From the IMG/VR virus record IMGVR_UViG_3300025102_000024, positions 1 through 61,894 of that record: a stretch of 61,894 nt of DNA; one strand, given 5' to 3'. Position 1 is the first letter of the stretch. Each line of letters opens with the position of its first letter. The translations under genes were made by a program, and so were the position numbers. Positions 21,461 to 41,677 of this stretch are shown in pieces. This stretch comes from a virus (Duplodnaviria; Caudoviricetes). Under the pieces are notes generated by a model. It was not told the DNA's origin. It saw nothing but the letters and a program-made list of their open reading frames with translations, and made no database searches.

Positions 21461-21832
21461 TCAACTTGCATTATTCCGTCTTGGACGATACGAAAATAAA
21501 TTGCTTGGAGGGTCTGGTTCCATCCATTTTTTTATCTTTTCGTATCTCTGTTCACTAAAAAAATCTTGTGAAGAATACCATTCCACCCAAGGTTCATGTC
21601 CCTTATGTTGATTGCAGGTTGAACAACAGCAAACAACGTTCTTTGTAAAATCAGTTCCTCCCTTTGAACGGGGTACAATATGATCTATGGTTAAATTATT
21701 GCCTGATCCACAATACGCACAGACGTAGTTCCACGTTTCCTTTATCTTTCTCCTCCATAACCTTTTTGCTTCCTGTGAACTTGTTGTTTCCAAGTTAAAC
21801 AAATAGTGACGGGGTGAAGATAGAACTCTCAT
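21461..21832 (-). CDS. HNH endonuclease
   Basis: CAYCG...LTIDHIVPRSKGG...NVV..C..CN..K. Confidence 0.92.
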   Translation of the reverse strand: MRVLSSPRHYLFNLETTSSQEAKRLWRRKIKETWNYVCAYCGSGNNLTIDHIVPRSKGGTDFTKNVVCCCSTCNQHKGHEPWVEWYSSQDFFSEQRYEKIKKWMEPDPPSNLFSYRPRRNNAS

Positions 21833-21850
21833 ATGTGCTTGCGACTATGA

Positions 21851-22102
21851 TTATTTATCTTTTTGATATTTTTTTATACTTTCTTCCCATTCTGACATAC
21901 TTGACTGCATTTGACCTTCATTTTCTTTTGCATCATATTGATTATATCCCTTTATTCTTTTCCACTCGTTATATAATGCTCCCAGTATCCAAGACTGAGA
22001 TAAACTTTTAGGTCCACTCTCCAAGAGTTCAAGATATCTCTTATTACTTGTATAACTTTTATACTCTTCTCTCCAGTTGGAGTCATCATATGGTTTCTTC
22101 AC
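21851..22102 (-). CDS. Conserved cyanophage hypothetical protein
   Basis: GTG start overlapping the upstream stop (GTGA); DDSNWREEY...GPKSLSQSW. Confidence 0.7.
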   Translation of the reverse strand: MKKPYDDSNWREEYKSYTSNKRYLELLESGPKSLSQSWILGALYNEWKRIKGYNQYDAKENEGQMQSSMSEWEESIKKYQKDK

Positions 22103-22242
22103 TCTTCTCCTTCAAGAGTTACATTACGAACCACAATTCTATCACCTTCGATTCTGAATTGTAATTCATCCTCATTGTCCCACATGAGTTCTTGATATAA
22201 TGAGTCTAATACTCTCATGTCGTGCCAAAGATCGTTCGCCAT
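22099..22242 (-). CDS. 47-aa hypothetical protein (not in ORF track)
   Basis: MANDLWHDMRVLDSLYQELMWDNEDELQFRIEGDRIVVRNVTLEGEE; AAGGA upstream; stop overlaps next start. Confidence 0.7.
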   Translation of the reverse strand: MANDLWHDMRVLDSLYQELMWDNEDELQFRIEGDRIVVRNVTLEGEE

Positions 22243-22261
22243 TTATCCTTTGTAAGTCCTG

Positions 22262-22630
22262 TTATTTATTATTTTCACTTAAGTATAGCATAGCATTTTT
22301 GAGGGTGTCAACATTATGTTTAAATCCTTTCAATCCCTTTTCACAATCTCTGCATACATTATTTGATACCTTTGTATTTGATTCTTTACAGATTAAACAA
22401 GATCCAACTTGGTATTTTTTCTTTATTTTATTCTCATACTCTCTCACTCGATCACGAGTGCAGACCTTACACTCATAAGCATAAGATGATATTTTTGTTG
22501 CATCTGGTCGGCATTTATAAAAATCAGCAATTAAATTTTTCTCCTTTCCGCATACACGACAGGTTCTTTCTTTTAAAAATAAATGCTGAGTTTCTAATTC
22601 AAAGTCAATACCCATTTTTTCCTTCAGCAT
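22262..22630 (-). CDS. Zn-finger, endonuclease VII-like protein, probably catalytically degenerate
   Basis: CRVC...FY...CKVC N-terminus; CLIC...CRDC..GL..F....L..A..YL C-terminus without the DH/N residues. Confidence 0.6.
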   Translation of the reverse strand: MLKEKMGIDFELETQHLFLKERTCRVCGKEKNLIADFYKCRPDATKISSYAYECKVCTRDRVREYENKIKKKYQVGSCLICKESNTKVSNNVCRDCEKGLKGFKHNVDTLKNAMLYLSENNK

Positions 22631-22945: not shown

Positions 22946-24022
22946 TTAGAGTGCGTTACCACGAGGTAATACTTCCTCTGGGAACACGAAGTTCTCATGA
23001 GGTTGGTCAACAGATGACATCCATGCTCTCATACCTTCGTTGAGAAGAATATTCTTTGTGTAGAAAGTTTCAAACTCTGGATCTTCTGCTGCTCTTATCT
23101 CTTGAGATACAAAATCGTATGCTCTTAAGTTAAGTGCAAGACCTACAATACCAATTGATGATGTCCACATTCCCATCACAGGAACGAACAGCATAAGGAA
23201 GTGTAAGAATCTTTTGTTTGAGAAAGCAACACCAAATATCTGTGACCAGAATCTGTTTGCTGTAATCATACTATAAGTTTCCTCTTCCTGTGTAGGATCA
23301 AATGCTCTGAATGTTGTGCTTTGAACCTTACCTTCTGAATAAACAGAGGTGTCTTCATACAAAGTGTTCTGTACTGTTGCACCGTGAATGGCACAGAGTA
23401 ATGCTCCACCTAGTATTCCTGCTACACCCATCATATGAAATGGGTTAAGAGTAATATTGTGGAATCCTTGTATGAATAAAATATATCTAAAAATTGCTGC
23501 GACACCAAATGATGGTGCGAAGAACCAACTATGCTGACCTAAAGGATAGATCAAAAAGATGCTTGTGAAGACTGCGATAACAGCAGAGAATGCTAGAGCA
23601 TTGTAAGGACGAATCCCAACAAGTCCTGCAATCTCAAATTGACGAAGCATGAAACCTATAAGTCCGAAGACTCCATGTAATGCTACAAAGTTCCATAGTC
23701 CACCAAGTTGAACCCAACGAACGAATGAACCTTGTGCTTCAGGTCCCCAGAGGAACATGAGACTATGACCCATTGCATCACCAGGTGTGGAGACTGCTGC
23801 TGTTAAGAAGTTTGCTCCCTCTAAGTAAGAGGATGCGATACCGTGTGTATACCATGAGGTAACGAAAGTAGTTCCAACGAACCAACCTCCGATAGCAAGG
23901 TAAGCACAAGGTAAAAGTAAAAGACCAGACCATCCGATGAATACAAAACGATCTCTCTTTAACCAGTCATCAAGAACATCAAACCAACCCCTTGTGGGTG
24001 CTTGTAAGGTAGATGCTACCAT
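22946..24022 (-). CDS. psbD: Photosystem II D2 protein
   Basis: [16 protein letters not shown]...[10 protein letters not shown]; AGGAG RBS. Confidence 0.99.
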
Positions 24023-24082: not shown

Positions 24083-25171
24083 TTAACCAATTGCAGGTGC
24101 TGTTAAAGCAACTGTTGTAGACTCTGCAGATGCTAAGTCTAGTGGGAAGTTGTGTGCATTTCTTTCATGCATTACTTCCATTCCTAAGTTTGCTCTGTTA
24201 AGAACATCTCCCCAAGTTGGTACAATCTTACCACCAGCGTCTACGACAGACTGGTTGAAGTTGAAACCGTTAAGGTTGAATGCCATTGTGCAGATACCCA
24301 TTGAGGTTAACCATACACATACAACAGGGAATACTGCTAGGAAGAAGTGTAAACTTCTTGAGTTATTGAATGAAGCATACTGGAAGATAAGACGACCAAA
24401 GTAACCGTGTGCAGCTACAATGTTGTATGTTTCTTCTTCTTGTCCGAACTTGTAACCATAGTTCTGAGATTCTGTCTCAGTTGTTTCTCTGATTAGAGAT
24501 GAAGTAACAAGTGAACCGTGCATTGCTGAGAATAAAGATCCTCCGAACATACCTGCAACACCAGCCATGTGGAATGGGTGCATAAGAATGTTGTGCTCTG
24601 CTTGGAATACGAACATAAAGTTAAATGTACCTGAGATACCTAGTGGCATTCCGTCTGAGAAAGATCCCTGACCGAAAGGATACACTAAGAATACTGCAAA
24701 TGCTGCAGATACAGGTGCTGAATATGCTACACATATCCAAGGTCTCATACCTAATCTGTATGATAGTTCCCACTGTCTGCCCATGTAAGCAGAAATTCCG
24801 ATTAGGAAGTGGAAAATAACTAACTGGTAAGGACCACCGTTATATAACCATTCATCTACTGTTGCTGCTTCCCAAATTGGGTAGAAGTGTAGACCTATAG
24901 CGTTTGATGAAGGAACAACTGCACCAGAGATGATGTTGTTACCGTACATGAAAGAACCCGCTACTGGTTCTCTGATTCCGTCGATATCGACTGGAGGTGC
25001 TGCTATGAAAGCAACGATAAAGCATGCTGCTGCTGCGAGCAAACATGGGATCATGAGTACACCGAACCAACCAACATAAATTCTGTTGTTTGTTGATGTA
25101 ACCCACTCACAGAACTCAGGCCATCCCTTTAGGATACCGCCTTGTCTGCGTGTGATATTTGAGGTTGTCAT
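24083..25171 (-). CDS. psbA: Photosystem II D1 protein (start moved to ATG 25171, MTTS...)
   Basis: [13 protein letters not shown]...[13 protein letters not shown]; uninterrupted; Prochlorococcus-like [16 protein letters not shown]. Confidence 0.99.
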
Positions 25172-25179
25172 TAGTAAGA

Positions 25180-25292
25180 CGTTTAAGTAGGGCATCAGGG
25201 GAGATGCGAGACTTATTTCCTGTAACCCCTCGCTACAGGATATGAGAGACTATTGCTTATACTGCCTATAGGTCTCGGTTTAAGAGCAGTCT
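25180..25292 (-). ncRNA. PhotoRC-II-like structured psbA leader RNA
   Basis: GAGAC/GTCTC, TCCTGTAGC/GTTACAGGA and GCATC/GATGC pairings upstream of phage psbA; family recalled, not searched. Confidence 0.7.
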
Positions 25293-25393: not shown

Positions 25394-27817
25394 TTACTTA
25401 TTCTTTGCCATCCTCTTAATTTTGTTGATTGTCTTCTGTTTATTGACTACTGCATCTATCTCTGGATCACCTGTAGGAGGCATGGAATTTGCACTTGCAG
25501 GATCTAATTTCTTATATCTATTTGCCTTTTTACCATACTCTGGATGAAATCCATTTATCATCTTAGGTGGTGATTCAGCAGGAAACTCAGGTGCAATCTT
25601 TTTGTTCTCTAAGAATCTTCTCTTAATTAACTCATAGGTAGATTCTTCTTTCTTAGGTATTACAGGATGAGACTTAAAGTATGCTTCATTAATCCATTTT
25701 TCATTTTCCTCTTGTAATATCTCATTAATTTTAGACTGAAGCATATTACTTTTAACACCATGTTGATCTTCCATGAATACGATTGAGTCTCCTTCAATAT
25801 GTTCTTTCCTTGTTACATTATACTTTTTACCATTGAAAAGGAATGAATACATATTAGGATTTTTACCCCAATACTGCTCTAATTCTTTTGCACCCATCTT
25901 CTTATAATCATTCAAGGCATGACCAAAGGCATGCTTACCATTACCAATCAATTCAAGAACTCCGTTCATTTTTTCCTGAGACTGAATTACATTATGATTG
26001 ATAAAATCTTTAGTCCATGATGTTCTTTCTTGTGGTTTGAATGGTTGAGGACCACCAATGTTCTTATTAAATAACTTATCCATGTCTTGGAAGTTTGTTT
26101 CTGGTTTTTTATTCTTATCTTTATATCTTTGACCAGGACTTACCTTGTAAGTTTTTTGTTTTGTCTCTGGTAAAATAACTGGTTGAGTTAAATGTCCGAA
26201 GATTTCTCTCTTTCTTTCAAGAGATAATCCCTCTTCCATACCACCACGATTAGTTGTGCTACCAAGTGGTCTACCACCTTGGCCTCCTTGATTGATTTTA
26301 ATTTTACTATTGGGAACTTTTACTTTATACTTCATGGTAGGTGAATTATATAAACCACCATGTTGATTTGCACCTGTAATACCTGTTTTAGCAGCAATAA
26401 CACCACCCACGACTACAGGAATACTACCTGCACCTAGTGAATCCAATTCAATTCCTGCTGCTGTTAAAGCAGCACCGAGTGGTGTATCTTCTGCTCCTTC
26501 TACACTACCACCTGGTCTAAATTCATAATTTTTTTCAATAGTCCAATTCTGTCCATTACTATTTTTAAAGTCTTCAAAATCAATTTGTACATTATTATGA
26601 ATCGAATTATCTAATCCAGGTCTGTCATAAACTTTATCTTGAAGTCCCTTTGTCACCGCATCTTTTGCTAAGTCCCACATTAACTCACCAACTGTCGTGG
26701 CATCACTGTTTGGAGGTTTTTGTGCTAATGGTTTATTTGCTCTGTCAGGATTATTTTGAACTTCTAATGCTTTTTTAATTGCATCATTTACAATAGGATC
26801 ATTCCTCACATCATTTAATGCATTTAAATCCCTATCTGAAAATTCGTTTGTAACATCAATCCTTTCATCAGAACCATTCGGGTTCTTTTTAAGAAAATCA
26901 TCATACTTGTTGAGCATGTTTGCTGAACTTTCCATGCGAGTTATCTTACCCAAATTTTCAATGACACCATCCATTACATCATCAAACTTGTCACCTAAAA
27001 AATCTTTTAATTGATCAATACCATCCTCAACATTTTTGTCAAAAGAATCTCCAAAATTCCTAAGACCTTTTTTTATCTTATCAAGCATTGCAGAGAAGTT
27101 ATCACCTGCTTGCTTATCTAATGGTGTAGCATCTGGAACTTCTCTTGGTTCTTTCTTAGAAACACCAGTTAGAATACAAGGGTATCTACCATATGCGTCA
27201 GGTGTTGCTGATGGAGGACCTGGATAGAATGCACGATATGAATAAGTAGCTGGATCGTTGGTGTTGCCATTTGCCTTTTTAATATCCCTAAACCAAAGTG
27301 CTTGCTCAGTCGTCAACTGCCCGTAAGAATAGAATGTACCAGTACCTGATCCACCACTTCCAGATGATCCATCCCAATCAGACAACTTACCATCAATACG
27401 ACCAAGGTTTACCATTCTACGATCTGATTCACGAATATATCCAACCATCGTCCAAGGATAAGACCATGTATAATACATGGCTGCCATTGGTCCTAAAACA
27501 TAACTTGTATCTCCTGGTGGTTCTTCTGTTTTTACATATTTTCCGTCCGCATGAACACCACCTGCATTAAATAAACCTGTTGTATCTCTTGCTTCTGTTG
27601 AATTGGTTGGATTTTCTCCTATATTATAATCTGTTTCGTCTGTCTCACCATCTGTAATTGTTTCAAAAGAATTACCTTGTGGATTACTAGGATCTCCTTG
27701 AAAAACAAATGCAGTATTATTTCTTGGCATATCCTCATCAAGCATAGAGAGTTTTTCATTCAACTCTGTAGACTTTAAATGATTTTTTAATTTTGAAAAA
27801 GTTTTTTTCTTTGCCAT
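25394..27817 (-). CDS. Large cyanophage hypothetical protein (807 aa)
   Basis: Long ORF; C-terminal NGFHP.YG...YKKLDP..A.SMP.TGDPEID. Confidence 0.8.
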   Translation of the reverse strand: MAKKKTFSKLKNHLKSTELNEKLSMLDEDMPRNNTAFVFQGDPSNPQGNSFETITDGETDETDYNIGENPTNSTEARDTTGLFNAGGVHADGKYVKTEEPPGDTSYVLGPMAAMYYTWSYPWTMVGYIRESDRRMVNLGRIDGKLSDWDGSSGSGGSGTGTFYSYGQLTTEQALWFRDIKKANGNTNDPATYSYRAFYPGPPSATPDAYGRYPCILTGVSKKEPREVPDATPLDKQAGDNFSAMLDKIKKGLRNFGDSFDKNVEDGIDQLKDFLGDKFDDVMDGVIENLGKITRMESSANMLNKYDDFLKKNPNGSDERIDVTNEFSDRDLNALNDVRNDPIVNDAIKKALEVQNNPDRANKPLAQKPPNSDATTVGELMWDLAKDAVTKGLQDKVYDRPGLDNSIHNNVQIDFEDFKNSNGQNWTIEKNYEFRPGGSVEGAEDTPLGAALTAAGIELDSLGAGSIPVVVGGVIAAKTGITGANQHGGLYNSPTMKYKVKVPNSKIKINQGGQGGRPLGSTTNRGGMEEGLSLERKREIFGHLTQPVILPETKQKTYKVSPGQRYKDKNKKPETNFQDMDKLFNKNIGGPQPFKPQERTSWTKDFINHNVIQSQEKMNGVLELIGNGKHAFGHALNDYKKMGAKELEQYWGKNPNMYSFLFNGKKYNVTRKEHIEGDSIVFMEDQHGVKSNMLQSKINEILQEENEKWINEAYFKSHPVIPKKEESTYELIKRRFLENKKIAPEFPAESPPKMINGFHPEYGKKANRYKKLDPASANSMPPTGDPEIDAVVNKQKTINKIKRMAKNK

Positions 27818-27829
27818 TATAAATTAATC

Positions 27830-28360
27830 CTATACTTTATTTATTATAACATCAGCACTTGGATATGTTACTGTACCTGATGGCCATGCTACCACAGTTA
27901 TTCGATTTGTGCTAGCTGAACCATTTACAACTTCAATGCCATGCCAAATATCTGGGTTGACCCATACAAATCTATTTGGTTTTGGTTCGATTATTGATCC
28001 ATCACAATCTTTAAACTTTAAATTACCACCCCATGATGTATCCCATGCAGGGTGTATGTAGTAAATATATCCACCATCTTCTCTGTGATATCCACCATTA
28101 GAAGGATCAGATGATTCTACATTAATATCTTTAGGTAAAACATTAAGAGAAGAAAATAATTTAATCTCACTCTCCCAGTCAGATTGCCACAAGTTAAGTG
28201 TGATTAATTTTTCTTTTATCCAAGAATTGATTTCAGTATGAAGAGAAGTTCTATTCTCAGAATACTCAGATGCATTTAAATAAGAACCTATACCAGATTG
28301 AATATAATTCCACTTACTACTATCTAAAAAATTATCTATACTAATTGCTGCTACACTCAT
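27830..28360 (-). CDS. 2OG-Fe(II) oxygenase, prolyl-hydroxylase-like
   Basis: YYIHPAWDTSWGGNL, PKPNR, WHGI, RIT; first metal motif atypical (HRED). Confidence 0.75.
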   Translation of the reverse strand: MSVAAISIDNFLDSSKWNYIQSGIGSYLNASEYSENRTSLHTEINSWIKEKLITLNLWQSDWESEIKLFSSLNVLPKDINVESSDPSNGGYHREDGGYIYYIHPAWDTSWGGNLKFKDCDGSIIEPKPNRFVWVNPDIWHGIEVVNGSASTNRITVVAWPSGTVTYPSADVIINKV

Positions 28361-28382: not shown

Positions 28383-28487
28383 TTATGTCTCTATCATAGC
28401 AGACATCATAACAACGAAGAGAGTTGTTAATATTACTGTCCCTGAGAATATCATAATAAACATTTGAAGTATTGTGGATACATTCAT
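28383..28487 (-). CDS. 34-aa single-TM microprotein
   Basis: MNVSTILQMFIMIFSGTVILTTLFVVMMSAMIET; ATGA overlap with upstream ORF. Confidence 0.65.
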   Translation of the reverse strand: MNVSTILQMFIMIFSGTVILTTLFVVMMSAMIET

Positions 28488-28618
28488 AATATACCTGCAT
28501 ATGCAGTAGTAGATAACCCGTATAGAGACACAAAAACTATCATCCAAGAAAATATTCTTGGAACATATTTGATTGATGGTGGTTGTTTGTATGCTTCCAT
28601 TACGTCGTGGTAATTCAT
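28484..28618 (-). CDS. 44-aa single-TM microprotein
   Basis: MNYHDVMEAYKQPPSIKYVPRIFSWMIVFVSLYGLSTTAYAGIL; ATGA overlaps at both ends. Confidence 0.7.
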   Translation of the reverse strand: MNYHDVMEAYKQPPSIKYVPRIFSWMIVFVSLYGLSTTAYAGIL

Positions 28619-28719
28619 CCTAATAATCCTGCAGATCCTGCTGTAATTCCCACAGTCAGGAAGAATAAAAATTCAAATACAGGCATAAATCCTGCGTTCT
28701 TTAGTAAAAATTGAGTCAT
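28615..28719 (-). CDS. 34-aa single-TM microprotein
   Basis: MTQFLLKNAGFMPVFEFLFFLTVGITAGSAGLLG; GAGGAG upstream. Confidence 0.7.
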   Translation of the reverse strand: MTQFLLKNAGFMPVFEFLFFLTVGITAGSAGLLG

Positions 28720-28748
28720 TTGTGCTTGTGCTCCTCAGCTATTATTGT

Positions 28749-28823
28749 TTAAGAAAATACGAACGGTAGTCCGTTGATTGCAGTGAATGATACTGCACAT
28801 GCGAATAAAATTTGGTAAATCAT
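28749..28823 (-). CDS. 24-aa hydrophobic microprotein
   Basis: MIYQILFACAVSFTAINGLPFVFS; AAGGAG RBS in the end of the upstream ORF. Confidence 0.6.
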   Translation of the reverse strand: MIYQILFACAVSFTAINGLPFVFS

Positions 28824-28825
28824 TT

Positions 28826-28987
28826 TTATGCTCCTTGGTATACTGGTGACATTACTCCACCTTCGGGATCGTCATCGTCATCATCATCTACTCTTAAAAA
28901 CAACTCCAACCCTACAAGGAATGCTAATGGATAAAAACACCATAGTATTGCCATGAAGGGTGAGATGTTTGTTGCTTCAGCGATCAT
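28826..28987 (-). CDS. 53-aa membrane microprotein with poly-Asp tract
   Basis: MIAEATNISPFMAILWCFYPLAFLVGLELFLRVDDDDDDDPEGGVMSPVYQGA; ATGA overlap. Confidence 0.75.
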   Translation of the reverse strand: MIAEATNISPFMAILWCFYPLAFLVGLELFLRVDDDDDDDPEGGVMSPVYQGA

Positions 28988-29082
28988 ACGAATACGTTAG
29001 TAGTTGTACTTGCAATTACTGCTATCATAAAAATATAAGGTACAACTTTAAATGGTACTGGTTGTCTCTTCACTGAGTTCAT
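28984..29082 (-). CDS. 32-aa single-TM microprotein
   Basis: MNSVKRQPVPFKVVPYIFMIAVIASTTTNVFV; TAATG and ATGA overlaps. Confidence 0.7.
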   Translation of the reverse strand: MNSVKRQPVPFKVVPYIFMIAVIASTTTNVFV

Positions 29083-29195
29083 TATACGATACCTGGTATA
29101 AGTTGACCTGTTGCTAAGTAGATGCCACCGAATAGAACGAATGCGAACATTGCTGGTCTACCGATTGCTCTCTCGAAGATATCTTTGTTGTTCAT
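29082..29195 (-). CDS. hli: Divergent high-light-inducible protein (37 aa)
   Basis: MNNKDIFERAIGRPAMFAFVLFGGIYLATGQLIPGIV; TGQLIPG tail; ExxNGR changed to ERAIGR. Confidence 0.75.
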   Translation of the reverse strand: MNNKDIFERAIGRPAMFAFVLFGGIYLATGQLIPGIV

Positions 29196-29338
29196 TAGAC
29201 GAAACCTGGAATGATTTGTCCTGTTGTTAGGTAAGCACCTAATCCTGCGATGATGCCAAGCATTGCGAATCTGCCATTAAGCTTCTCTGCAAAAAACTTT
29301 TCCTTTTCAATTGTTCTTGTTTCTGTTTTATTTGTCAT
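29195..29338 (-). CDS. hli: High-light-inducible protein (47 aa; start moved to 29338)
   Basis: AEKLNGRFAMLG...TGQIIPG; TAATG coupling. Confidence 0.93.
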   Translation of the reverse strand: MTNKTETRTIEKEKFFAEKLNGRFAMLGIIAGLGAYLTTGQIIPGFV

Positions 29339-29445
29339 TAGAATATACCTGGAATAAGGTTTCCTGTTGTTGCGTATGCACCGACTGCTGCTACGAAACC
29401 AAGCATTGCTGCCCAACCGTTAAATCTTTCTGCTTCTGGAGTCAT
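29338..29445 (-). CDS. hli: High-light-inducible protein (35 aa, not in ORF track)
   Basis: MTPEAERFNGWAAMLGFVAAVGAYATTGNLIPGIF; alternative in-frame ATG at 29490. Confidence 0.93.
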   Translation of the reverse strand: MTPEAERFNGWAAMLGFVAAVGAYATTGNLIPGIF

Positions 29446-29491
29446 GAGTTTGTACCTTTTATTAATTGTGAATTGTGAATTGATCTTCATT

Positions 29492-29617
29492 TTAGAAGAA
29501 TCCTGGTGCTATCCATCCGAATAGACCATAGTTGATTGTGCCGATTACTAAACCAAGCATTGCAAGACGACCATTGATCTTCTCAGCATATTTCCAATAG
29601 GAATGATTTTTATCCAT
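29492..29617 (-). CDS. hli: High-light-inducible protein (41 aa; start moved to 29617)
   Basis: AEKINGRLAMLG; TAATG coupling. Confidence 0.9.
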   Translation of the reverse strand: MDKNHSYWKYAEKINGRLAMLGLVIGTINYGLFGWIAPGFF

Positions 29618-29814
29618 TAGAATATACCTGGAATGATTTGACCTGTGGTTGCATATGCACCTAATAATGCAACGAAACCAATCATAGCCCAACGACCATT
29701 AACTTTCTCTGCATTTTGTGGATATCCTTCATAGGATACAGACTCATCAATATATGGACGAGTTTCAGTTGGAAAGGCATTTTGTCTTCCACCACTTTCA
29801 GTTGTAACAGTCAT
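29617..29814 (-). CDS. hli: High-light-inducible protein (65 aa)
   Basis: AEKVNGRWAMIG...TGQIIPGIF. Confidence 0.95.
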   Translation of the reverse strand: MTVTTESGGRQNAFPTETRPYIDESVSYEGYPQNAEKVNGRWAMIGFVALLGAYATTGQIIPGIF

Positions 29815-29820
29815 TTAAGT

Positions 29821-29870
29821 TTTATTAATTTATGTAACAATATTATATATAAAATATTAAATTTTGTCAA
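29821..29870 (-). promoter_or_regulatory. Sigma70 promoter of the hli operon with downstream HLR1-like repeat
   Basis: TTGACA(29865-70)-17-TATAAT(29842-47); GTTACATA-N2-TTAATAAA at 29821-29838. Confidence 0.75.
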
Positions 29871-29901: not shown

Positions 29902-29927
29902 AAAAAAGAGGGTCTAAACCCCCTTTT
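29902..29927 (-). terminator. Intrinsic terminator of the glycan operon
   Basis: AAAAGGGGGT-TTAG-ACCCTCTTTTTT. Confidence 0.7.
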
Positions 29928-30717
29928 ATTGTTGATTCTGTATCGGTTCTGTCACACGACCCAGATAAGGATCGAAATTCATTAGTTTGTCTATCGGAAC
30001 ATCTACACCTGATTGCAACCACCAATTTGTCAAAGCATTATAACTTGCCTTGTGTATCGCATCTACATGCTCTGGGTGTATTGAAGAACCCAGTTGCACT
30101 TTGTATAGAAATATAGGAATTGCATATGTATTACCTGAGTTGTATATCAAATCATCTGCAACTGCTCTCGGTTTCACACCATTATCAAGTTTATACTTAT
30201 CATCTCTACAGTGAAGTCTTATAAGTTTCTCTGCGTGATGACGATTAATAATATAGCAAGCAGTTGAAAAATCATTTACAAATCTACGATGTAATGTAAC
30301 ATGTAGTCCTCCAGTACAGATGATTGCTAGTTGTATTACATCCCAATCATATGGAATTTGCGATATAAAATTGCTCCAAGTAAAATTCCAGCACTTGACA
30401 ATTTCCAAATCAATATCATCTTCCATGATGATCGCATAAGGAGTATCAGATGTTTCATACCAATGTTTAATAGCTTTTAAATGTGATGTAGTACAACCAA
30501 CCTCACCAGATGTCATCTGTTCTGGGTATCTACCTTTTAATATATCACCTAGATCATCATTACGACCATCATATGCAGACACTCTCTCATAGTTTTCAAT
30601 CTCCCAATACTTAAAGAGATTCTCCATATATTCTTTTCTTTCTGGTTGTCCATCAAGGTTGATATAATATATCGGACCAATATTCTTTAACTTGTGAACT
30701 GATTTATTTTTATCCAT
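29926..30717 (-). CDS. Glycosyltransferase family 25
   Basis: YYINL...ER, SAYDG, GEVGC..SH, I.EDD. Confidence 0.88.
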   Translation of the reverse strand: MDKNKSVHKLKNIGPIYYINLDGQPERKEYMENLFKYWEIENYERVSAYDGRNDDLGDILKGRYPEQMTSGEVGCTTSHLKAIKHWYETSDTPYAIIMEDDIDLEIVKCWNFTWSNFISQIPYDWDVIQLAIICTGGLHVTLHRRFVNDFSTACYIINRHHAEKLIRLHCRDDKYKLDNGVKPRAVADDLIYNSGNTYAIPIFLYKVQLGSSIHPEHVDAIHKASYNALTNWWLQSGVDVPIDKLMNFDPYLGRVTEPIQNQQ

Positions 30718-31502
30718 TAGACTGTGTATACTGCTCCGTGCTGATAGGTAAACCCTTGAACTGGTTGAATGTGCTTTGATGGCATGAATAGATTGACACC
30801 TAAAAACTTAATTGGTGCATCTCCCCATCTCTTAGTGTATATACCACCATTCTCGTCAATCATATTATAGAATGCCATATACTCACTTGTCAAGAACCAA
30901 TCAACTTTTCCTAACTCCCAGTTTGTATAATACATCCAACGATCAGGTATGTTGTTTGGATATTTTTCATTCACTAAATCCCATAGACCCTCTACAACCT
31001 TCTCATTATCCTGTTGAACAGCAGGAGCTACATACCCATACCAACATTCATTTTCCTTTGCCCACTTGAATATATCGTATCCTAGAGGGGTCTGAATGAA
31101 TGAGTCTGTATCTAAACGAATGTAGTATTCATATTGCTGAACAATTGGAAATTTATAAACTTCACCAGAAAACATTCGACACATATGACGGTATCCCATT
31201 GAGAAACCAGGATGACCCCACTCAATAGGACCATTACCGTGTGTAGGATGTGGATAGAACTCTGGTATATTATCTGCAATCTCTTTTGAATAGTCAGGTG
31301 TTTTAAATTCTATAATTTTATATTTTAAGTCTAAATTTGTTTTGACTTTTGGCATGTATTCTATGAATGATTCTTCAATGAATACTAATACATCTGTACT
31401 ATCAGTATACTTAAGGAGATTTTCTTCTAGTAATGATAGAGACTTATTAAATTCTTCAATGTCTTTATCAGATGATCTGACGAGGTAGATAATACAATTC
31501 AT
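30717..31502 (-). CDS. GT15 (Kre2/Mnt1-like) alpha-1,2-mannosyltransferase (start moved to 31502)
   Basis: GYRHMCRMFSG, YY.RLD.D, Y.NWE, GGIY..RWGDAP. Confidence 0.85.
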   Translation of the reverse strand: MNCIIYLVRSSDKDIEEFNKSLSLLEENLLKYTDSTDVLVFIEESFIEYMPKVKTNLDLKYKIIEFKTPDYSKEIADNIPEFYPHPTHGNGPIEWGHPGFSMGYRHMCRMFSGEVYKFPIVQQYEYYIRLDTDSFIQTPLGYDIFKWAKENECWYGYVAPAVQQDNEKVVEGLWDLVNEKYPNNIPDRWMYYTNWELGKVDWFLTSEYMAFYNMIDENGGIYTKRWGDAPIKFLGVNLFMPSKHIQPVQGFTYQHGAVYTV

Positions 31503-32863
31503 ATCATTTGCCATTCTTTATAGGGTATCATGTTTGGACTATGGGTTTGTATAAAAGACTTTGGATAGAATACTTTATTGTTTGGTTGATTCTTATCTAA
31601 GAAAGCAGACCAGAAACTAAAAGTAGATACATGCAAAATGTGATACTCACATTCTACCATCTTTTTAAGAGAAAGGAAAGCATCATCTTCTATGATAGCA
31701 AAAGCATTTGGAAATGTCTCATCAAACCATTTTATTTTTTCTTTTGCCTTTTCATTGTCATCAGAGAATATGAATACTAATACATTCTCAGGTATTCGTT
31801 TGAAGCACTCAATATAAAAAGAGTCATCAACATATCCATTTACATGATCATCAGCAGCACGAGTGCAGAATCGAAGATGTAAGGATGCAGTGTTTGGTAC
31901 AGAAAGATCTGTCACAGATAATTGGTCTCTTACATAATCAAGCTCATCACAATCACTAAATCGAAACATATCATTGATAACAAACTTTGTATCATATGTT
32001 GTTTCTAAATTTCCTTTCCAATTTAAATTAGGAAATGTAGATTCGATCTTCTCATGACTACCATCATGTCCACCTAGTAAACGATCTGAATTATATGATG
32101 AGGGATATTTGCCTCCTCCATTCCACAAATCCCAAGTTCCAAAGAATGGTTTTGATATATCATGTTTCTTACAAAAAGAAATTACCTCTGCCATCTGAAA
32201 CAAATTATTTCCTAGACCACCATGTAATGTAGCACTCACATCATATGATGCAATGTTAACAGGCATATAAGAATCATCACCGACATTTAAATTTACCTTT
32301 GATAGTATATCAGTACTATATTCTTTATCTTCAAAAAATTTAATTGAATCTACCATAATAAAATTATTAGGATATTTCTTCTTCATACTATCAGCTATCT
32401 GATAATATTCATTGTAGTAATTTTCGATTGATACAAATGATGTACAGTCACTATGATTAGGAAATTGATCAACTGCATATCGGTTATGACCAATACCAAG
32501 TGTTCTATCTTTTACATTACAAGGATTACGATAACCCCAAGATATAAACAATGACCATAGAGTATTGAATTTATTCCCCTTCATACATAAAAACTTCATC
32601 TGTGGATGAAGTTCTATAAATTCTGGTATGTATTTTAAATATGAATGAGTAATATTAGTTGTAGTATCAATAAGTGAAACTCTTCTAAGTCTCTCCTCTT
32701 TTGAAAGACTTTCTGAATTCCAAATTAAACAATCATCATTCCAATTTTCAAAACTATTTTGATACTTCCTACCCCCATCTTTATATTTGACAGGTATATG
32801 ATTTTTCAATATCTGATGCATTCTTAAAAATCCACATGCACCTGTACCAATTACATGAAACAT
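31499..32863 (-). CDS. Fusion: sulfotransferase-like N-domain plus GT11 domain (start moved to 32863)
   Basis: N-terminal VIGTGACG; GGLGNNLFQ, LHLR, IFSDD, STFSFW. Confidence 0.7.
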   Translation of the reverse strand: MFHVIGTGACGFLRMHQILKNHIPVKYKDGGRKYQNSFENWNDDCLIWNSESLSKEERLRRVSLIDTTTNITHSYLKYIPEFIELHPQMKFLCMKGNKFNTLWSLFISWGYRNPCNVKDRTLGIGHNRYAVDQFPNHSDCTSFVSIENYYNEYYQIADSMKKKYPNNFIMVDSIKFFEDKEYSTDILSKVNLNVGDDSYMPVNIASYDVSATLHGGLGNNLFQMAEVISFCKKHDISKPFFGTWDLWNGGGKYPSSYNSDRLLGGHDGSHEKIESTFPNLNWKGNLETTYDTKFVINDMFRFSDCDELDYVRDQLSVTDLSVPNTASLHLRFCTRAADDHVNGYVDDSFYIECFKRIPENVLVFIFSDDNEKAKEKIKWFDETFPNAFAIIEDDAFLSLKKMVECEYHILHVSTFSFWSAFLDKNQPNNKVFYPKSFIQTHSPNMIPYKEWQMI

Positions 32864-33486
32864 TAATATAAAACTCCACCTGATAATAATACTCCTCTTT
32901 GTTGCCAAGGTTTGGAGCACACATCAAATTTAGATTTGAAATCATCTCGAATTAAATAAACATTTCCAGATTGTTTGCCAACATATCCAGACATGCCAAT
33001 AAAATCATATCCGATTTCATCTGCAAAATTAATTAATTCTATAATACCAGACTCTAAACCATTTGGTTCAATGATTATTACTATTGGTCTGTATTTACCT
33101 AGACTTCTTGCTACATTAATATCATCACCATCAACATCAATAGATGCTAATACAAAATTATCATTTGATACTTCAAACTTAGATTTGTCAATTATATCTT
33201 CAAGAGTATTATCTATAGAGACTAGTTCATTAAAACACGCAATATTATTATATTGATCTTGCATTGATAAATTTAATCTAGAAGTAGCTTCAACTAAGAT
33301 AGCATTATAGTTATCATTTTTTGACCATAGATTAGCACAATTACTTGATAAAAATCCATCCCATGCTCCAATTTCAAGCACAGTTCCACCTGTAATATTC
33401 AAGTGGTCGAATATTGCTTGATTAATACTATCCTCACCATTCTCAGAATACACATCTTGTGAATGATTATATAGTAAATCAATCAT
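32863..33486 (-). CDS. FkbM-like SAM methyltransferase
   Basis: YSENGED, LEIGAWDG..SN, SIDVDGDD. Confidence 0.75.
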   Translation of the reverse strand: MIDLLYNHSQDVYSENGEDSINQAIFDHLNITGGTVLEIGAWDGFLSSNCANLWSKNDNYNAILVEATSRLNLSMQDQYNNIACFNELVSIDNTLEDIIDKSKFEVSNDNFVLASIDVDGDDINVARSLGKYRPIVIIIEPNGLESGIIELINFADEIGYDFIGMSGYVGKQSGNVYLIRDDFKSKFDVCSKPWQQRGVLLSGGVLY

Positions 33487-34294
33487 ATTTGAGTCCTCTT
33501 AACTCATACTCCCAACGAACATCCATATTCATTCTAGGTTTACCATCCTCTTCAATAATTTGTCCTACAAAAATACCATGTTCCATAGGTTCATGTGAAG
33601 GGAAAGGACGACTATCTTGATTGGGTGGATATATTTCTTTGAGTTGTTTATACACACCTTCTTTTACATAGTATTCTAATCCAACACTATAGGCACTTTT
33701 ATAATGCACATGATCACCAAGTTGATATGTTGGTTTTCCTACTATCTCTGAGTGTCTCCAATGATCATGACAAACATGATCTTCTTTAATAAGTGGCCAG
33801 AGAACATCATTTAATATAGTTTGATCTGCTGTCCTGATATTTGCATTAACATTTTCTAAATCAAGTCTTCCATATTTTGAATGAAAAACTTTATTGTTTA
33901 TACCAAACATACCTGCCATGATTGTATAACCATGATTATGACAATCTCTCAAGAGATGTGCAGATTTATTTGATACAATCCATTCATCTACAGCATTCTT
34001 TTCTCTATAACTTAATCTACTATCAGTATCTCTACTAATCCAATATTCAACATCAGGTTCATTGAGTGGTCTAAATCTCCAATTCAAACCATCATAAGAA
34101 TTTTTTCTTTCACAATGAACAACCTCTGATCCATGTTCCTCTATTGCATCAAGATACATTGACGGTACATCTTGAGCAACATAGAATCGTGCAGTCCACT
34201 CAGGATAAATTTCTTTTGCAATTCTTGCATTCTCTACAGCACCCACACAATATAGTGGATTGTCACCGAAGAGACTAAATGTTATCAGTCGCAT
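33479..34294 (-). CDS. Putative glycosyltransferase (start moved to 34294)
   Basis: ITFSLFG...Y..GA.EN, WRF, SRDTDSR (DxD), DQ..L. Confidence 0.65.
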   Translation of the reverse strand: MRLITFSLFGDNPLYCVGAVENARIAKEIYPEWTARFYVAQDVPSMYLDAIEEHGSEVVHCERKNSYDGLNWRFRPLNEPDVEYWISRDTDSRLSYREKNAVDEWIVSNKSAHLLRDCHNHGYTIMAGMFGINNKVFHSKYGRLDLENVNANIRTADQTILNDVLWPLIKEDHVCHDHWRHSEIVGKPTYQLGDHVHYKSAYSVGLEYYVKEGVYKQLKEIYPPNQDSRPFPSHEPMEHGIFVGQIIEEDGKPRMNMDVRWEYELRGLKYD

Positions 34295-34871
34295 ACCAAG
34301 ATCCATAATAACAATCAGCACCATGAAAACCAGGTTCTGATCCACCTTTAAATATTTTACCAAAATCACCTAAAACATCAGTGAATGTTTCGGGTGTAAT
34401 ATAATGCGGATGTGCTGTATCTGTCACACTACCAATACTCTCAAAAACTCTAACTACTTTTGATGTTTTCTTTGCCAATTCTAATTGTTTCTTTGGATCT
34501 AAAACATGCTGTACAACATTGAAGAACCAAGTCTCATCAACCTTCTCATCTATATCTAAATGTTCATAAGGTGCTGCAATTATTTCAACTCCTATGTCTT
34601 CATAATCTTTTCTAATATTAGGTGGCCAACGATCTATCAGAGGTTCAATTAATATGCCTCTTTTAAAGTTTCCTTTTGTCATATGAATAGAACCTCTTGG
34701 TCCTCCACCAACTTCAACAATGACTTTATCTTTAAAATCTTTTAGGTAATCTATACCTAGATATTTTCCTATAACAGTTGAACCGACATTATATGCCTCT
34801 GGTCTTAAATCTTGATGGTGTCCGAACTCTTCAGTTTGAGCGGTCTCCCACCTGTCCATTGTAATTTCCAT
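34275..34871 (-). CDS. Class I SAM-dependent methyltransferase
   Basis: VEVGGGP, IEPL, FNVVQHV.DP. Confidence 0.8.
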   Translation of the reverse strand: MEITMDRWETAQTEEFGHHQDLRPEAYNVGSTVIGKYLGIDYLKDFKDKVIVEVGGGPRGSIHMTKGNFKRGILIEPLIDRWPPNIRKDYEDIGVEIIAAPYEHLDIDEKVDETWFFNVVQHVLDPKKQLELAKKTSKVVRVFESIGSVTDTAHPHYITPETFTDVLGDFGKIFKGGSEPGFHGADCYYGSWYATDNI

Positions 34872-35683
34872 TAAATTAACTCTCTGTGTTCAATCAATCT
34901 ACGAGTATTTATGAGGTCTTTATGACGTTCATAAAATAGTTTTGTATTCTTATGGTGTGCTTTAAACAACCAAGGTGCAGGTTGACCTGTAACCCTTGTG
35001 CCACCCCATGAATTATCACTTTCATAATCAATTAAATATGCACCAACAACTTTACCAAGTTCTTTAAATGCACGATAACACAAATCATGGTCATCCATAT
35101 CTTGGGGTGAAAATGCCTCATCAAAATAATTTAATTTCTTGAGGTCTTCATGGTCTATCATAAGAGGACCACGATTTACAGAACATCTAACTGCAAAAAT
35201 ATCTTTTGGAATTATCTGCTGTTTATTAGCGTGATCAACATGATCTAGTATATCACACCAACAATCATCTAAATTATTTTTCATACCGATGTGTCTACTA
35301 CTCTCATTAAACACCCAGTTATGTGCGGTGTTTGCAGTCACAGCAAAGACATCATCAAATGCTTTAAATGGTTTCTCCATTCTAACATTCCAATCCTTTT
35401 CTGTCACTATCATATCATCTTGTATGATAATAATTTTATCACCTTTTGCTGCTTTTATACCAATGTTATTTGCTTTGGTTTCAAATACATCAGGTGCATG
35501 CAGTAGTTTCCAATCTACGGGTGTGCTTAATAAAGTGTCCCAAACAACTTGCTCAGAGTTATCAGAACAACCATCTAAAACAATAATCAATTCATAAGGA
35601 GTTCTAGTATTATAATAAATTCCCTCAAGCACTTTTTCAAGTAACCAATCTTTATTATGAACTGTTAAAATAATACTATGCAT
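34871..35683 (-). CDS. Glycosyltransferase family 2
   Basis: SIILTVHN, DGCSDNS, N.G, QDD, DD.DL. Confidence 0.88.
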   Translation of the reverse strand: MHSIILTVHNKDWLLEKVLEGIYYNTRTPYELIIVLDGCSDNSEQVVWDTLLSTPVDWKLLHAPDVFETKANNIGIKAAKGDKIIIIQDDMIVTEKDWNVRMEKPFKAFDDVFAVTANTAHNWVFNESSRHIGMKNNLDDCWCDILDHVDHANKQQIIPKDIFAVRCSVNRGPLMIDHEDLKKLNYFDEAFSPQDMDDHDLCYRAFKELGKVVGAYLIDYESDNSWGGTRVTGQPAPWLFKAHHKNTKLFYERHKDLINTRRLIEHRELI

Positions 35684-36410
35684 TTTTTATCTGAATTAAA
35701 AATTTATCAATCTCTCTACCGTATCCAGCAGATCCTCTTTCATACCAATAATCATAATCACATTCTATATAATTTCTGTAGTCTTGTCCACCCACTGTTA
35801 AACCATCACGGACTGCAATATTTGTTAGAATACTTTGGTCGTTACGATGTTCAACAAAGGACGATAGTTCTTCACCTAAAGTGCTTGGTGCATTATTTAC
35901 AATATCTAAATCAAGACAGAAGTTCAACCAATCCTCAACTCCTTTGATAGATTTTTCACAACACTTCCATATCATAAACCCTGCTTCAAGTTGACTTACA
36001 TCGTGATAATCTTCTTCATCACAATTCATCTTGATAAAACAATCTCTCTTTGTATAATTACCATTGATATTATTACTCAATAACAATAATGAAGCATCGT
36101 TTTCATCTAGAGTCTCTTCAATATAACTTACTAAGCCTGGTGAAAACATATCACCACAATCACAATATATTAGATAGTCTCCTTCATTGATAGATTTAAG
36201 AGTTTCAAGAATATAATATGGTTTCCATACCCACCAACCTGCACCTTTTGATTGGTCTAAAATCTTTTGATTATCCTTATAGAAATCAGTAGTTTCTAAC
36301 TGCTTTCGAGAGTAAGGATGATGTGTAAATCCTTCTTTGTGAGTTTGATGTAAAAATTTTTGTTGTTCTGCAAAGTTTTCGTCTGCGTATGATAGTAAAT
36401 GCCAATTCAT
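35676..36410 (-). CDS. Putative glycosyltransferase
   Basis: GWWVWKP, Y.D.G, HRNDQS motifs; operon context. Confidence 0.6.
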   Translation of the reverse strand: MNWHLLSYADENFAEQQKFLHQTHKEGFTHHPYSRKQLETTDFYKDNQKILDQSKGAGWWVWKPYYILETLKSINEGDYLIYCDCGDMFSPGLVSYIEETLDENDASLLLLSNNINGNYTKRDCFIKMNCDEEDYHDVSQLEAGFMIWKCCEKSIKGVEDWLNFCLDLDIVNNAPSTLGEELSSFVEHRNDQSILTNIAVRDGLTVGGQDYRNYIECDYDYWYERGSAGYGREIDKFLIQIKNA

Positions 36411-37300
36411 AATGTCTCCTTAATCCAATCGTCTAATTTTATTTGTGGTTTCCATTTAAAGGTTTTGTAAATTTTGTCTATGTTAGCAAGTGTAATTCTT
36501 GCTTCACCCTTTCTACTTGGTATGTTCACCTGATTATCTGAAATCAAATCTGCTATTTCATTTACAGAATAATTTATACCCGTGCCGACATTGTATATTT
36601 GCCCGTATGCTTCATCATCAGGATTTGATATTGCTGCCATTATATTTGCATTAACAACATCTTTGACATGAACAAAATCTCTTCTTTGTTCCCCATCACC
36701 TACAATTGTAAGGGACTCACCTGCATCTCTTTGCCTTTCAAAGATTCCTATAACTGGTGCATATTGACCCCTCTTTGGTGCTCTCTCACCATAGACATTA
36801 AAGTATCTAAAAATAATAGTTTGTAATCCAAAAAGGTTGGTGTACATTTCACATAATTTTTCACCTGCAATCTTTGATACTGAATATGGATTTAAGCAAT
36901 CATCAGGTTGAGTTTCTACATTTGGAAATGGATTATTACCATATCCAGATGAAGTTGAAGAATATAAAAACTTCTTAACTCCAGTTTCTCTTGCAATCTG
37001 TAAAAGAGTACAAGTTCCTTTTACATTAATATCAACTGCATTGATTGGATTTTCAGTTGCTGTTCCAATCCTAGATTCTGCAGCACAATGAAAGACATAA
37101 TCAACATTTGTGAATGCATTTTTCATAAATTTATAATCAGTTATATCTCCTCTTACATTCATTGCCTTATCATTCCAATAGAACTGATCATTATCAGCAT
37201 ATTCATTATCAATTGCAACTACTTCATGTCCAAGATTAAGTAATCCATCAACCATATGAGATCCTATAAAACCAGCTGCACCTGTAACTAAACTAATCAT
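36407..37300 (-). CDS. NAD-dependent nucleotide-sugar epimerase/dehydratase
   Basis: TGAAGFIG, YSVSK (YxxxK), RYFNVYG, RDFVHV.D. Confidence 0.92.
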   Translation of the reverse strand: MISLVTGAAGFIGSHMVDGLLNLGHEVVAIDNEYADNDQFYWNDKAMNVRGDITDYKFMKNAFTNVDYVFHCAAESRIGTATENPINAVDINVKGTCTLLQIARETGVKKFLYSSTSSGYGNNPFPNVETQPDDCLNPYSVSKIAGEKLCEMYTNLFGLQTIIFRYFNVYGERAPKRGQYAPVIGIFERQRDAGESLTIVGDGEQRRDFVHVKDVVNANIMAAISNPDDEAYGQIYNVGTGINYSVNEIADLISDNQVNIPSRKGEARITLANIDKIYKTFKWKPQIKLDDWIKETL

Positions 37301-38175
37301 AATCTTTCCTGTAAATATTTTTGATTTTTGTAGTATTCAATTAATTGTTCTTTTGATAAGACTCTCAATTGTTCCCATAGTTGATTATTAGATTGCATAA
37401 ATGGATTATGAAACCAAGAGTTCTGTGTTCTTTGATGTTCTAAATGATATGCGTGTTCATCTACTCTACCAATATTATATCCTAATGTTTTCCAACGATG
37501 ATGTCTTTCAATATCTTCTGGTGCATATGCAATAAACCCTTCATTCTCTAATCCACCATCAATATAAACTTGACGATTAAAGAACTGAACCATTCCATAC
37601 TCCGCCCATCCTTGACCTTGTTCACTTTGATAATAAAAGTATCTATCATCAAAAGATTTACAATCATAATTTGATTCTAAAAAACTACTGACCCAACCAC
37701 CTTTTTCAAAACGATCCATATCATTTTGTGTTTCAATAGTGAATCCAAGATTTACTTTTCTCTCACCATGATTACCATAACGATAAGGATATACAACATC
37801 ATATTCACCCTCTAACATTTTAACAGATTGAACGTAACTGTCAATCGGTAATATTAAATCAGTATCATAGTTGACAACAATATCAGTCTTTGATTCCATT
37901 ACCATATCATTCAATATTCTAGTGCGATGAAATGCATCATCATCACGAGTATCATCTTCAAATATATGAATTAAGTTTGTTGTATCAACTAATCTTTTAA
38001 TTATTGGTAGTGCAAATGCTTCAAATCTACCTTCTGAATCTACCTCTTTGATCATTACATTTGTATCAAAGTGATGTAAAAGATATGCTGTTGATAGGAT
38101 TACATTACGAAGACGATCACCTGTATCAATACGCAATGGAATTATAAAAGTAGTATTTTTTAAATCAGATTTCAT
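37297..38175 (-). CDS. GT-A fold glycosyltransferase (GT7/GT2-like)
   Basis: FIIP.R, YDTD, GG.ENE.F..Y..ED.ER, YHLEH. Confidence 0.75.
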   Translation of the reverse strand: MKSDLKNTTFIIPLRIDTGDRLRNVILSTAYLLHHFDTNVMIKEVDSEGRFEAFALPIIKRLVDTTNLIHIFEDDTRDDDAFHRTRILNDMVMESKTDIVVNYDTDLILPIDSYVQSVKMLEGEYDVVYPYRYGNHGERKVNLGFTIETQNDMDRFEKGGWVSSFLESNYDCKSFDDRYFYYQSEQGQGWAEYGMVQFFNRQVYIDGGLENEGFIAYAPEDIERHHRWKTLGYNIGRVDEHAYHLEHQRTQNSWFHNPFMQSNNQLWEQLRVLSKEQLIEYYKNQKYLQERL

Positions 38176-41676: not shown

Positions 41677-41677
41677 T

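Follow-up and report, generated by a model that had tools for sequence, protein, structure and literature searches.

Six single-helix micro-ORFs behind the hli genes of a cyanomyovirus: an operon with relatives in Prochlorococcus

What are the very short open reading frames (ORFs) that fill the DNA directly behind the hli genes of a marine cyanophage, and do they belong with these genes in function or merely in position? The question is raised by IMG/VR virus record IMGVR_UViG_3300025102_000024, a linear record of 61.9 kb with an estimated completeness of 30%, which was analysed over its whole length (positions 1 to 61,894, hereafter the window). The window is a fragment of a T4-like cyanomyovirus close to P-HM1 and P-HM2; among named phages, the Prochlorococcus myoviruses P-HM1, P-HM2 and MED4-213 (Eurybiavirus) are nearest to it, with about 80% DNA identity across the hli genes. 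Between 28383 and 29814 it carries 11 ORFs on the minus strand, all with ATG starts, five of which (hliA to hliE) encode high light inducible proteins (HLIPs) and six of which (m6 to m11) encode other single-helix proteins, here called microproteins. Judged from comparative sequence analysis, this string of genes is the phage version of a cassette that is shared with Prochlorococcus.

The 11 ORFs are 24 to 65 amino acids (aa) long and are closely packed. Seven of the ten junctions overlap, either by 1 nucleotide (nt; TAATG), as between hliA and hliB, hliC and hliD, hliD and hliE, and hliE and m6, or by 4 nt (ATGA), as between m6 and m7, m9 and m10, and m10 and m11; the remaining three are gaps of 46, 2 and 29 nt. 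Most of the genes are translationally coupled via these overlapping stop and start codons. A sigma-70-type promoter (TTGACA-17-TATAAT, 29842..29870, minus strand) precedes the string and agrees with the consensus at 12 of 12 positions, and a promoter with 11 or 12 matches is located 24-41 nt ahead of the first hli ATG in all 33 relatives that could be examined. The operon is one transcription unit, in which this conserved promoter drives the five HLIP genes together with the six single-pass membrane micro-ORFs. According to Thompson et al. 2016 (PMC5082946), the auxiliary metabolic genes of P-HM2, hli among them, belong to the middle expression cluster. The section between 28383 and 29195 (hliE to m11) is covered for 96.2% by sense ORFs of at least 24 aa that start with ATG, as against 15.9% on the antisense strand. 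Dinucleotide shuffles of the same section reach a mean coverage of 34% (standard deviation 16%, maximum 84%) and none of 2000 attains the observed value. All 11 ORFs have a single hydrophobic stretch, with 19-residue Kyte-Doolittle maxima between 1.41 and 2.34, where hliA (1.57), hliC (1.41) and hliD (1.52) lie below the usual line of 1.6. The first-pass annotation of this DNA had described the apparent gap at 28.38-29.19 kb as tiled by seven hydrophobic, mostly overlapping ORFs and had placed the whole string under one consensus promoter, and both descriptions hold.

The hli genes are a textbook case of photosynthesis-gene exchange between cyanophages and Prochlorococcus, and the HLIPs bind chlorophyll through the motif E-x-x-N/H-x-R in their single helix. 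The annotation had counted five hli-like genes in the string and, indeed, hliA to hliE all match PHROG 178 ('high light inducible protein', E 2.5e-29 to 1.4e-7), with further weak matches of hli genes to Pfam PF00504 that stay below its cut-off. More specifically, hliA (29617-29814) encodes a 65-aa HLIP of the hli03 type with a long N-terminus (phrog_178, E 2.5e-29; E..NGR.AM), hliB (29492-29617) one of 41 aa (E 2.2e-14; E..NGR) and hliC (29338-29445) a 35-aa NGW variant (E 2.7e-19; E..NGW). The 47-aa product of hliD (29195-29338) is of the hli04 type (phrog_20629, E 9.6e-21; phrog_178, E 7.5e-18; E..NGR), and the matching gene of P-HM1 is annotated as hli04. The 37-aa product of hliE (29082-29195) is divergent (phrog_178, E 1.4e-7) and has the motif E..IGR, in which Glu and Arg are kept and Ile replaces Asn; its DNA matches the annotated hli05 of P-SSM2. 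The five ORFs are HLIPs, four canonical and one of the hli05 type, and as such members of the cyanophage and Prochlorococcus families (hli03, hli04, hli05; PHROG 178 and 20629, distantly PF00504).

The six other ORFs were compared between phage loci. A scan of IMG/VR with m7 gave 595 pattern matches and at least 72 confirmed loci, and these 72 loci together with P-HM1 and MED4-213 make up the local tblastn set of 74. Among these listed loci m7 is present in 74, m9 in 63, m6 in 39, m8 in 36, m11 in 27 and m10 in 24. When the count is taken over the IMG/VR loci that are long enough, among the matches listed, m9 is found in 55/61, m6 in 35/61, m8 in 36/67, m11 in 23/53 and m10 in 19/59, and hli genes accompany them in all 58 sufficiently long phage loci. 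Gene order and strand are identical in 47 of the 50 listed loci that hold at least three of the families, the other three having m6 after m9, and all hits that are not cut by a contig end are complete ORFs of similar length. Conservation of frame in relatives, to which the first-pass annotation had looked for a decision, is complete: the proposed frame is open in every unique DNA version (m6 32/32, m7 59/59, m8 30/30, m9 48/48, m11 26/26), and the other five frames of these genes are open in 0-13. Moreover, it is the third codon positions that vary most, and the median pairwise ratio of nonsynonymous to synonymous substitution (dN/dS) is 0.27 for m6, 0.23 for m7, 0.25 for m8, 0.35 for m9 and 0.32 for m11, in pairs that are not independent of each other, as compared to 0.22 for hliE. 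All six micro-ORFs appear to be genuine protein-coding genes under purifying selection. None of the six belongs to a Pfam or NCBIfam family (NCBIfam: 0 families for 12 proteins), and our literature searches retrieved no paper describing them.

The first of the six, m6 (28984-29082), encodes a 32-aa single-helix protein of which 38 complete ORFs were collected among the phage loci, with P8, V9, P10, V14, P15, Y16 and F18 invariant (PVP..VPY.F). In 34 of the 38 listed loci its ATG shares exactly 1 nt with the stop codon of an HLIP gene, the HLIP being of the hli04 type in 22, of the hli05 type in 10 and degenerate in 2; m6 follows m9 in three of the other four and has no upstream ORF that we could find in the last. 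The motif [KR]-Q-P...K.VP.IF is shared by m6 (RQPVPFKVVPYIF) and m10 (KQPPSIKYVPRIF). The first-pass annotation had pointed out this motif, as well as a run of seven Asp in m7, and both are present and conserved inside each family. An hhalign comparison of m6 with the N-terminus of the m10 family gave a probability of 14% and an E of 0.0019; the shared motif is real, and homology of the two is not established. Five of the 18 representatives obtained with the m6 profile look like HLIP-m6 fusion proteins, each a singleton on one contig. They were rejected as evidence because a 1-nt error at the TAATG junction would create such a fusion. The predicted complex of an hli04-type HLIP with m6 scored 0.02 against a mark of 0.32 in a run without controls, and counts neither way.

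The product of m7 (28826-28987) has 53 aa, with a helix containing LWCFYP, a poly-Asp (D7) tract and a GGV-M-P-Y tail; W16, Y19, P20 and the Asp run are invariant. It matches phrog_7843 (E 7.8e-24 over residues 4-53), and the gene takes the same position after hli04 as PHM1_203 and PHM2_202. At least 5921 database proteins are homologous to it at E<=0.001 (among 8000 scored). The AlphaFold2 model shows a helix over residues 10-33 and a disordered acidic tail (mean predicted local distance difference test score, pLDDT, 73), and a search of the ESM Atlas with m7 returned unnamed viral clusters only. As a side observation, the W..YP motif in the helix gives chance-level matches to helix F of microbial rhodopsins (PDB, E 0.15-1.3; Pfam Bac_rhodopsin, E 0.17).

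The next gene, m8 (28749-28823), encodes a hydrophobic peptide of 24 aa that has so far been found in phages only. It has an AAGGAG Shine-Dalgarno sequence 7 nt before its ATG, and 21 of 30 unique relatives likewise have a match of 6 nt or longer. This Shine-Dalgarno sequence is contained in the conserved C-terminal Y-Q-G-A codons of m7 (TACCAAGGAGCATAA, 28826-28840, minus strand), and part of the conservation of these codons may therefore serve the translation of m8. The 34-aa single-helix protein encoded by m9 (28615-28719; EF.FF...G..AG..G) matches phrog_17067 over its full length (E 2.6e-18, residues 1-33 of the 33-position profile), with E16, F17, F20, G24, A27, G28 and G31 invariant. It combines a glycine-zipper-like G..AG..G with a Glu in the membrane, m7 being the one with the poly-Asp tail. 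The last gene of the operon, m11 (28383-28487), encodes another 34-aa single-helix protein (..QMF..IFSGTV..T..VVMMS.M.E), so far known from phages only; it matches phrog_28108 only weakly (E 2.4e-4) and in local tblastn PHM1_208 (46% identity, E 1e-4), which has a syntenic position.

The remaining gene, m10 (28484-28618), has a different history. Its 44-aa product matches only positions 1-32 of the 109 in phrog_14182, and its N-terminal 41 residues are the N-terminus of a longer protein. In the 23 relatives whose frame is complete this protein always has 101-133 aa; in a 24th the contig ends within the frame. These full-length relatives consist of a signal-peptide-like N-terminus that ends in ...TAYA, followed by a highly conserved Trp/Cys-rich domain of about 72 aa, and it is this mature domain, after the ...AYA site, that is missing from m10. 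In the DNA alignment the window and its relatives run in parallel as far as the AYA codons, after which the window resumes about 10 nt ahead of the m11 start. The exact 44-aa form is found on 8 contigs, and the mature domain of the full-length family occurs in 48 of 151 genomes of the Prochlorococcus/Synechococcus family. By these alignments m10 is what a deletion has left of a longer secreted protein, of which the signal-anchor alone is kept, and not a native microprotein. The parent gene, T4-GC 438, goes under the name 'carboxylesterase', and Table 3 of Sullivan et al. 2010 (PMC3037559) gives it as a sporadic host-like gene with a length of 135 bp in P-RSM4. For a 118-aa member of the full-length family (L014:3349-3705 and relatives) neither Pfam (E<=0.01) nor NCBIfam (E<=1) yielded a family. 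In these profile searches the label finds no backing, as no hydrolase domain is recognised in the T4-GC 438 protein. The AlphaFold2 model of the same 118-aa protein (pLDDT 48.9) was too poor for a fold search, and the ESM Atlas yielded nothing usable for it.

How much of this was on record? The first-pass annotation spoke of an undescribed set, which stands for m6 and m8, two genes without any annotation, and fails for the others: m7, m9, m11 and the parent of m10 have been annotated as hypothetical or 'carboxylesterase' genes and have PHROGs (7843, 17067, probably 28108, and 14182, respectively). In P-HM1 and P-HM2 their counterparts follow in the same order downstream of hli04, namely T4-GC 437 for m7, T4-GC 554/594 for m9 (PHM1_204, which is T4-GC 554, and PHM2_203), T4-GC 438 for a full-length m10 and, further on, T4-GC 556 for m11 (PHM1_208/PHM2_207). 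Unlike these phages, the window keeps only 44 aa of m10, and its m6 and m8 have no counterpart in the annotations of P-HM1 and P-HM2. Both do match unannotated DNA in P-HM2, m6 at 168752-168835 and m8 at 169070-169141 of GU075905.1, where the chain of ORFs reads hli03, hli04, m6 (29 aa, 1-nt overlap), m7, m8 (24 aa), m9 and a 124-aa protein. Hence the hli genes were known before, as were four of the six small genes in the form of nameless hypotheticals. As far as our searches reach, three things have not appeared in print: m6 and m8 as selected genes, m10 as a remnant, and the occurrence of m6, m7 and m9 in a cassette of phage and host that is linked to hli, PTOX and psbA and in which m6 is coupled to an HLIP gene. 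In genomes as abundant as these, genes of 24-35 aa that are under selection escape annotation.

The first-pass annotation had suggested a search of Prochlorococcus genomes and cyanophages, and homologues of m7, m9 and m6 were found in both. Hosts were scanned with the m7 alignment, using one genome per species, and a second set comprised 151 genomes of the host family. The scan gave 58 confirmed m7 loci, of which 57 are titled Prochlorococcus and which include two complete chromosomes. In the second set, m7 has a full-length match at E<=2.5e-18 in 32 genomes, all of 1.6-2.0 Mb, m9 a match at E<=1e-6 in 47 genomes, all of 2.0 Mb or smaller and with up to three copies, and m6 is present in 4. 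Partial matches to the acidic part of m7 in 95 further genomes (E 1e-4 to 1e-6) were dropped as low-complexity noise. Host genomes have as many as 3 matches to m9 and 6 to m7 each, the extra copies being situated in hli islands. The host proteins, such as WP_269605792.1 (m7 type) and A9601_12501 / ABM70534.1 and ABO16994.1 (m6 type), are named only hypothetical; they are homologous single-helix proteins in the neighbourhood of hli, PTOX or psbA.

The host neighbourhoods are as follows. The m7 gene lies directly upstream of an AOX/PTOX gene (PF01786, E 2e-15) in 20 of the 58 loci; 29 loci have an hli gene at a distance of 3 kb or less, and in 9 loci m9 comes just before m7. Moreover, no more than about 330 nt separate m9 and m7 in at least 11 host genomes, and at one locus (L076) m7 is placed between the genes of a glutathione peroxidase and an AhpC/TSA peroxiredoxin. 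In a complete host genome of 1.71 Mb there is an operon of hli (35 aa), an hli04-type gene (46 aa), m7-like (60 aa, 1-nt overlap), m9-like (37 aa) and hli (42 aa). The same genome has a second hli04-type gene that is followed with 0-nt spacing by m6 (35 aa), and this pair lies 325 nt from a divergent gene for D1, which is 96% identical to the psbA product of the window. In the host m9 mostly precedes m7; inside the host hli operon, as in the phages, m7 comes first. Of the 74 listed phage loci, 7 have PTOX on the same strand, 2-2.6 kb farther downstream. Prochlorococcus MIT 0916 has a 26-aa ORF (L107:2019-2099, minus strand; MKLVPYIF...) with the core motif of m6 between hli genes and an m7-PTOX pair; it falls below the m6 search threshold. 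In a quick tree of m7, based on 59 columns and with poor resolution, 25 host rows form a 'core' clade apart from the phage copies, and the PTOX-linked and m9-linked host copies group with 15 phage rows (support 98 in the Shimodaira-Hasegawa-like approximate likelihood-ratio test); phage and host copies interleave, with at least 2 changes of label forced. The amino-acid motifs are retained at 45-60% identity in both hosts and phages. In short, the six further single-helix ORFs that the first-pass annotation had seen beside the hli genes are conserved, show the marks of purifying selection and are hli-linked in phages, and three of them are hli-linked in Prochlorococcus as well.

Because several of the microproteins adjoin hli, psbA or PTOX genes in the Prochlorococcus host, they could well be helpers in photoprotection that have escaped recognition. 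On the basis of gene neighbourhood, we give the reading that they are thylakoid accessory helices working with HLIPs a chance that falls just short of even. In such a scheme, the microproteins would join the HLIPs in the thylakoid membrane, m6 would be made in step with an hli04- or hli05-type HLIP and bind it as a stoichiometric partner, and m7 and m9 would act as a pair. The accessory helices would then stabilise HLIP assemblies, or target them, at intermediates of photosystem II (PSII) repair or assembly or at PTOX with its release of electrons, so that D1 and D2 of both phage and host make might be protected while the infected cell keeps photosynthesising; m8 and m11 would be phage-only additions. 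A more specific version holds that m6, m7 and m9 are subunits partnering HLIPs (m6 in a 1:1 ratio with the hli04/hli05 type, m7 and m9 as an acidic-tailed pair), in a module exchanged between Prochlorococcus and its myoviruses that operates at PSII repair intermediates or with PTOX. This version is put forward tentatively, with distinctly less confidence than the general one. If it is true, the photoprotective machinery of the most abundant phototroph in the ocean gains new components, and so does the toolkit with which the phage hijacks it. In any case, conserved micro-ORFs accompany the hli genes in phage and host. They are candidate partners of the HLIPs, and with P-HM2 on MED4 a tractable system is at hand.

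Several other explanations have to be considered. That the small ORFs are untranslated, their conservation being due to an RNA or DNA element or to chance, is very improbable. The ORFs are very short and the DNA is AT-rich, but no shuffle attains the observed tiling (0/2000), third-position variation dominates with a dN/dS of 0.23-0.35, only the proposed frame is open in all relatives, the motifs persist in hosts and phages at the identities given above, and Rfam holds nothing above threshold (best 14.8 bits against a gathering score of 50). Low-molecular-mass subunits with a single helix are well known from PSII, photosystem I (PSI) and cytochrome b6f, and small proteins associated with HLIPs include Psb34 and Psb35. 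The microproteins resemble all of these in size, in the one transmembrane helix and in the plausible role of an accessory helix beside pigment-protein complexes. They might accordingly be very divergent versions of known subunits of PSII, PSI, cytochrome b6f or NDH-1 that the phage supplies to replace those of the host, a view with which the size of 24-53 aa, the single helix and the photosynthesis-gene neighbourhood are in line. We regard it as improbable, if somewhat less so than absence of translation: no sequence relationship was detected in Pfam, NCBIfam and PDB profile searches, where a comparison of five family profiles with 177,635 distinct PDB chain sequences yielded chance-level matches only and, at E<=10, none to a photosynthetic subunit, and in the host these genes are additional copies within hli islands, as described above.

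A stronger competitor is that the microproteins are real but unrelated to HLIPs and PSII. They would be small membrane proteins of a generic kind, serving for example in the response to membrane, ion or redox stress or in conflicts between phage and host or between phages (exclusion, for instance), and would hitch-hike on a mobile hli cassette whose promoter they share only for convenience. This is rather unlikely in our estimation, but it deserves to be taken seriously, as much of what weighs against a role in photoprotection speaks for it. The microproteins are like HLIPs in size, single helix, operon, promoter and phage-host distribution, but unlike them m6-m11 have no HLIP profile match in the PHROG search and no E..N/H.R motif, nor did the Pfam, NCBIfam and PDB searches bring up any other family. 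In the hosts, 27 of the 58 m7 loci have neither hli nor PTOX nor m9 within 3 kb, and the 'core' copy of m7 lies near EamA and DUF805 genes; the counts of host loci are, moreover, not independent because many of the loci are orthologous. No m8 or m11 was found in the 151 host-family genomes searched, the content of the cassette varies (m6 35/61, m8 36/67 and m11 23/53 among the matches listed), and its neighbours include a 2OG-Fe(II) oxygenase and a signal-peptide protein that are unrelated to photosynthesis. T4-like phages often have small membrane ORFs in their variable regions, and with hli islands being mobile, the linkage could be explained by co-transfer alone. The functional argument is drawn from gene neighbourhood, for peptides that are predicted to be membrane-bound, and the way in which the homologues were gathered, by tblastn at the protein level with m7 as anchor, favours conserved frames. 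With respect to expression, marine RNA libraries contain a 432-nt contig that spans 28755-29186 with 3 differences (hliE, m6, m7 and the start of m8), the same run has a 176-nt contig over m9-m8, and runs from two other studies also cover m6-m9. As assembled contigs they are no proof of transcription and do not tell the strand; DNA may have been carried over, and the best run was perhaps made from the same sample as the window. No RNA-library contig in four runs covers 28466-28613 (m10 and the start of m11), which is not evidence of absence. What speaks against mere hitch-hiking is the exact 1-nt overlap between HLIP stop and m6 start in 34/38 listed phage loci, with 0-nt spacing in hosts, the embedding of m7 and m9 between hli genes in the host operon, and the recurrence of PTOX, peroxiredoxin, glutathione peroxidase and psbA as host neighbours. 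A function as accessory helices beside the HLIPs is accordingly the reading that we favour, with the reserve expressed above.

Following the minus strand downstream, one meets a cluster of glycosyltransferase and sugar-nucleotide genes (30-42 kb), a hairpin, the promoter, the 11 small ORFs, the 2OG-Fe(II) oxygenase, an 807-aa ORF, psbA and psbD. The hairpin is terminator-like (29906-29927) and divides the operon from the upstream glycosyltransferase gene (29926-30717, minus strand), which matches a PHROG glucosyltransferase. The oxygenase gene (27830-28360, minus strand; PF13640, E 6.9e-7) is separated from psbA by the 807-aa ORF (25394-27817, minus strand), for which there is no PHROG family at E<=1e-5. 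The psbA (370 aa, 24083-25195) and psbD (358 aa, 22946-24022) genes are on the same strand as the operon, about 3 kb downstream of it. Just downstream of psbD (21461-22630, minus strand) genes of the mobile-element type, for an HNH endonuclease and an endonuclease VII-like protein, stand beside the photosynthesis genes. Directly upstream of the hli promoter (29926-42781, minus strand) there are genes for glycosyltransferases, nucleotide-sugar epimerases, a UDP-glucose dehydrogenase and an NAD synthetase-like protein. This cluster resembles the lipopolysaccharide gene clusters near hli03 that are described by Sullivan et al. 2010 (PMC3037559).

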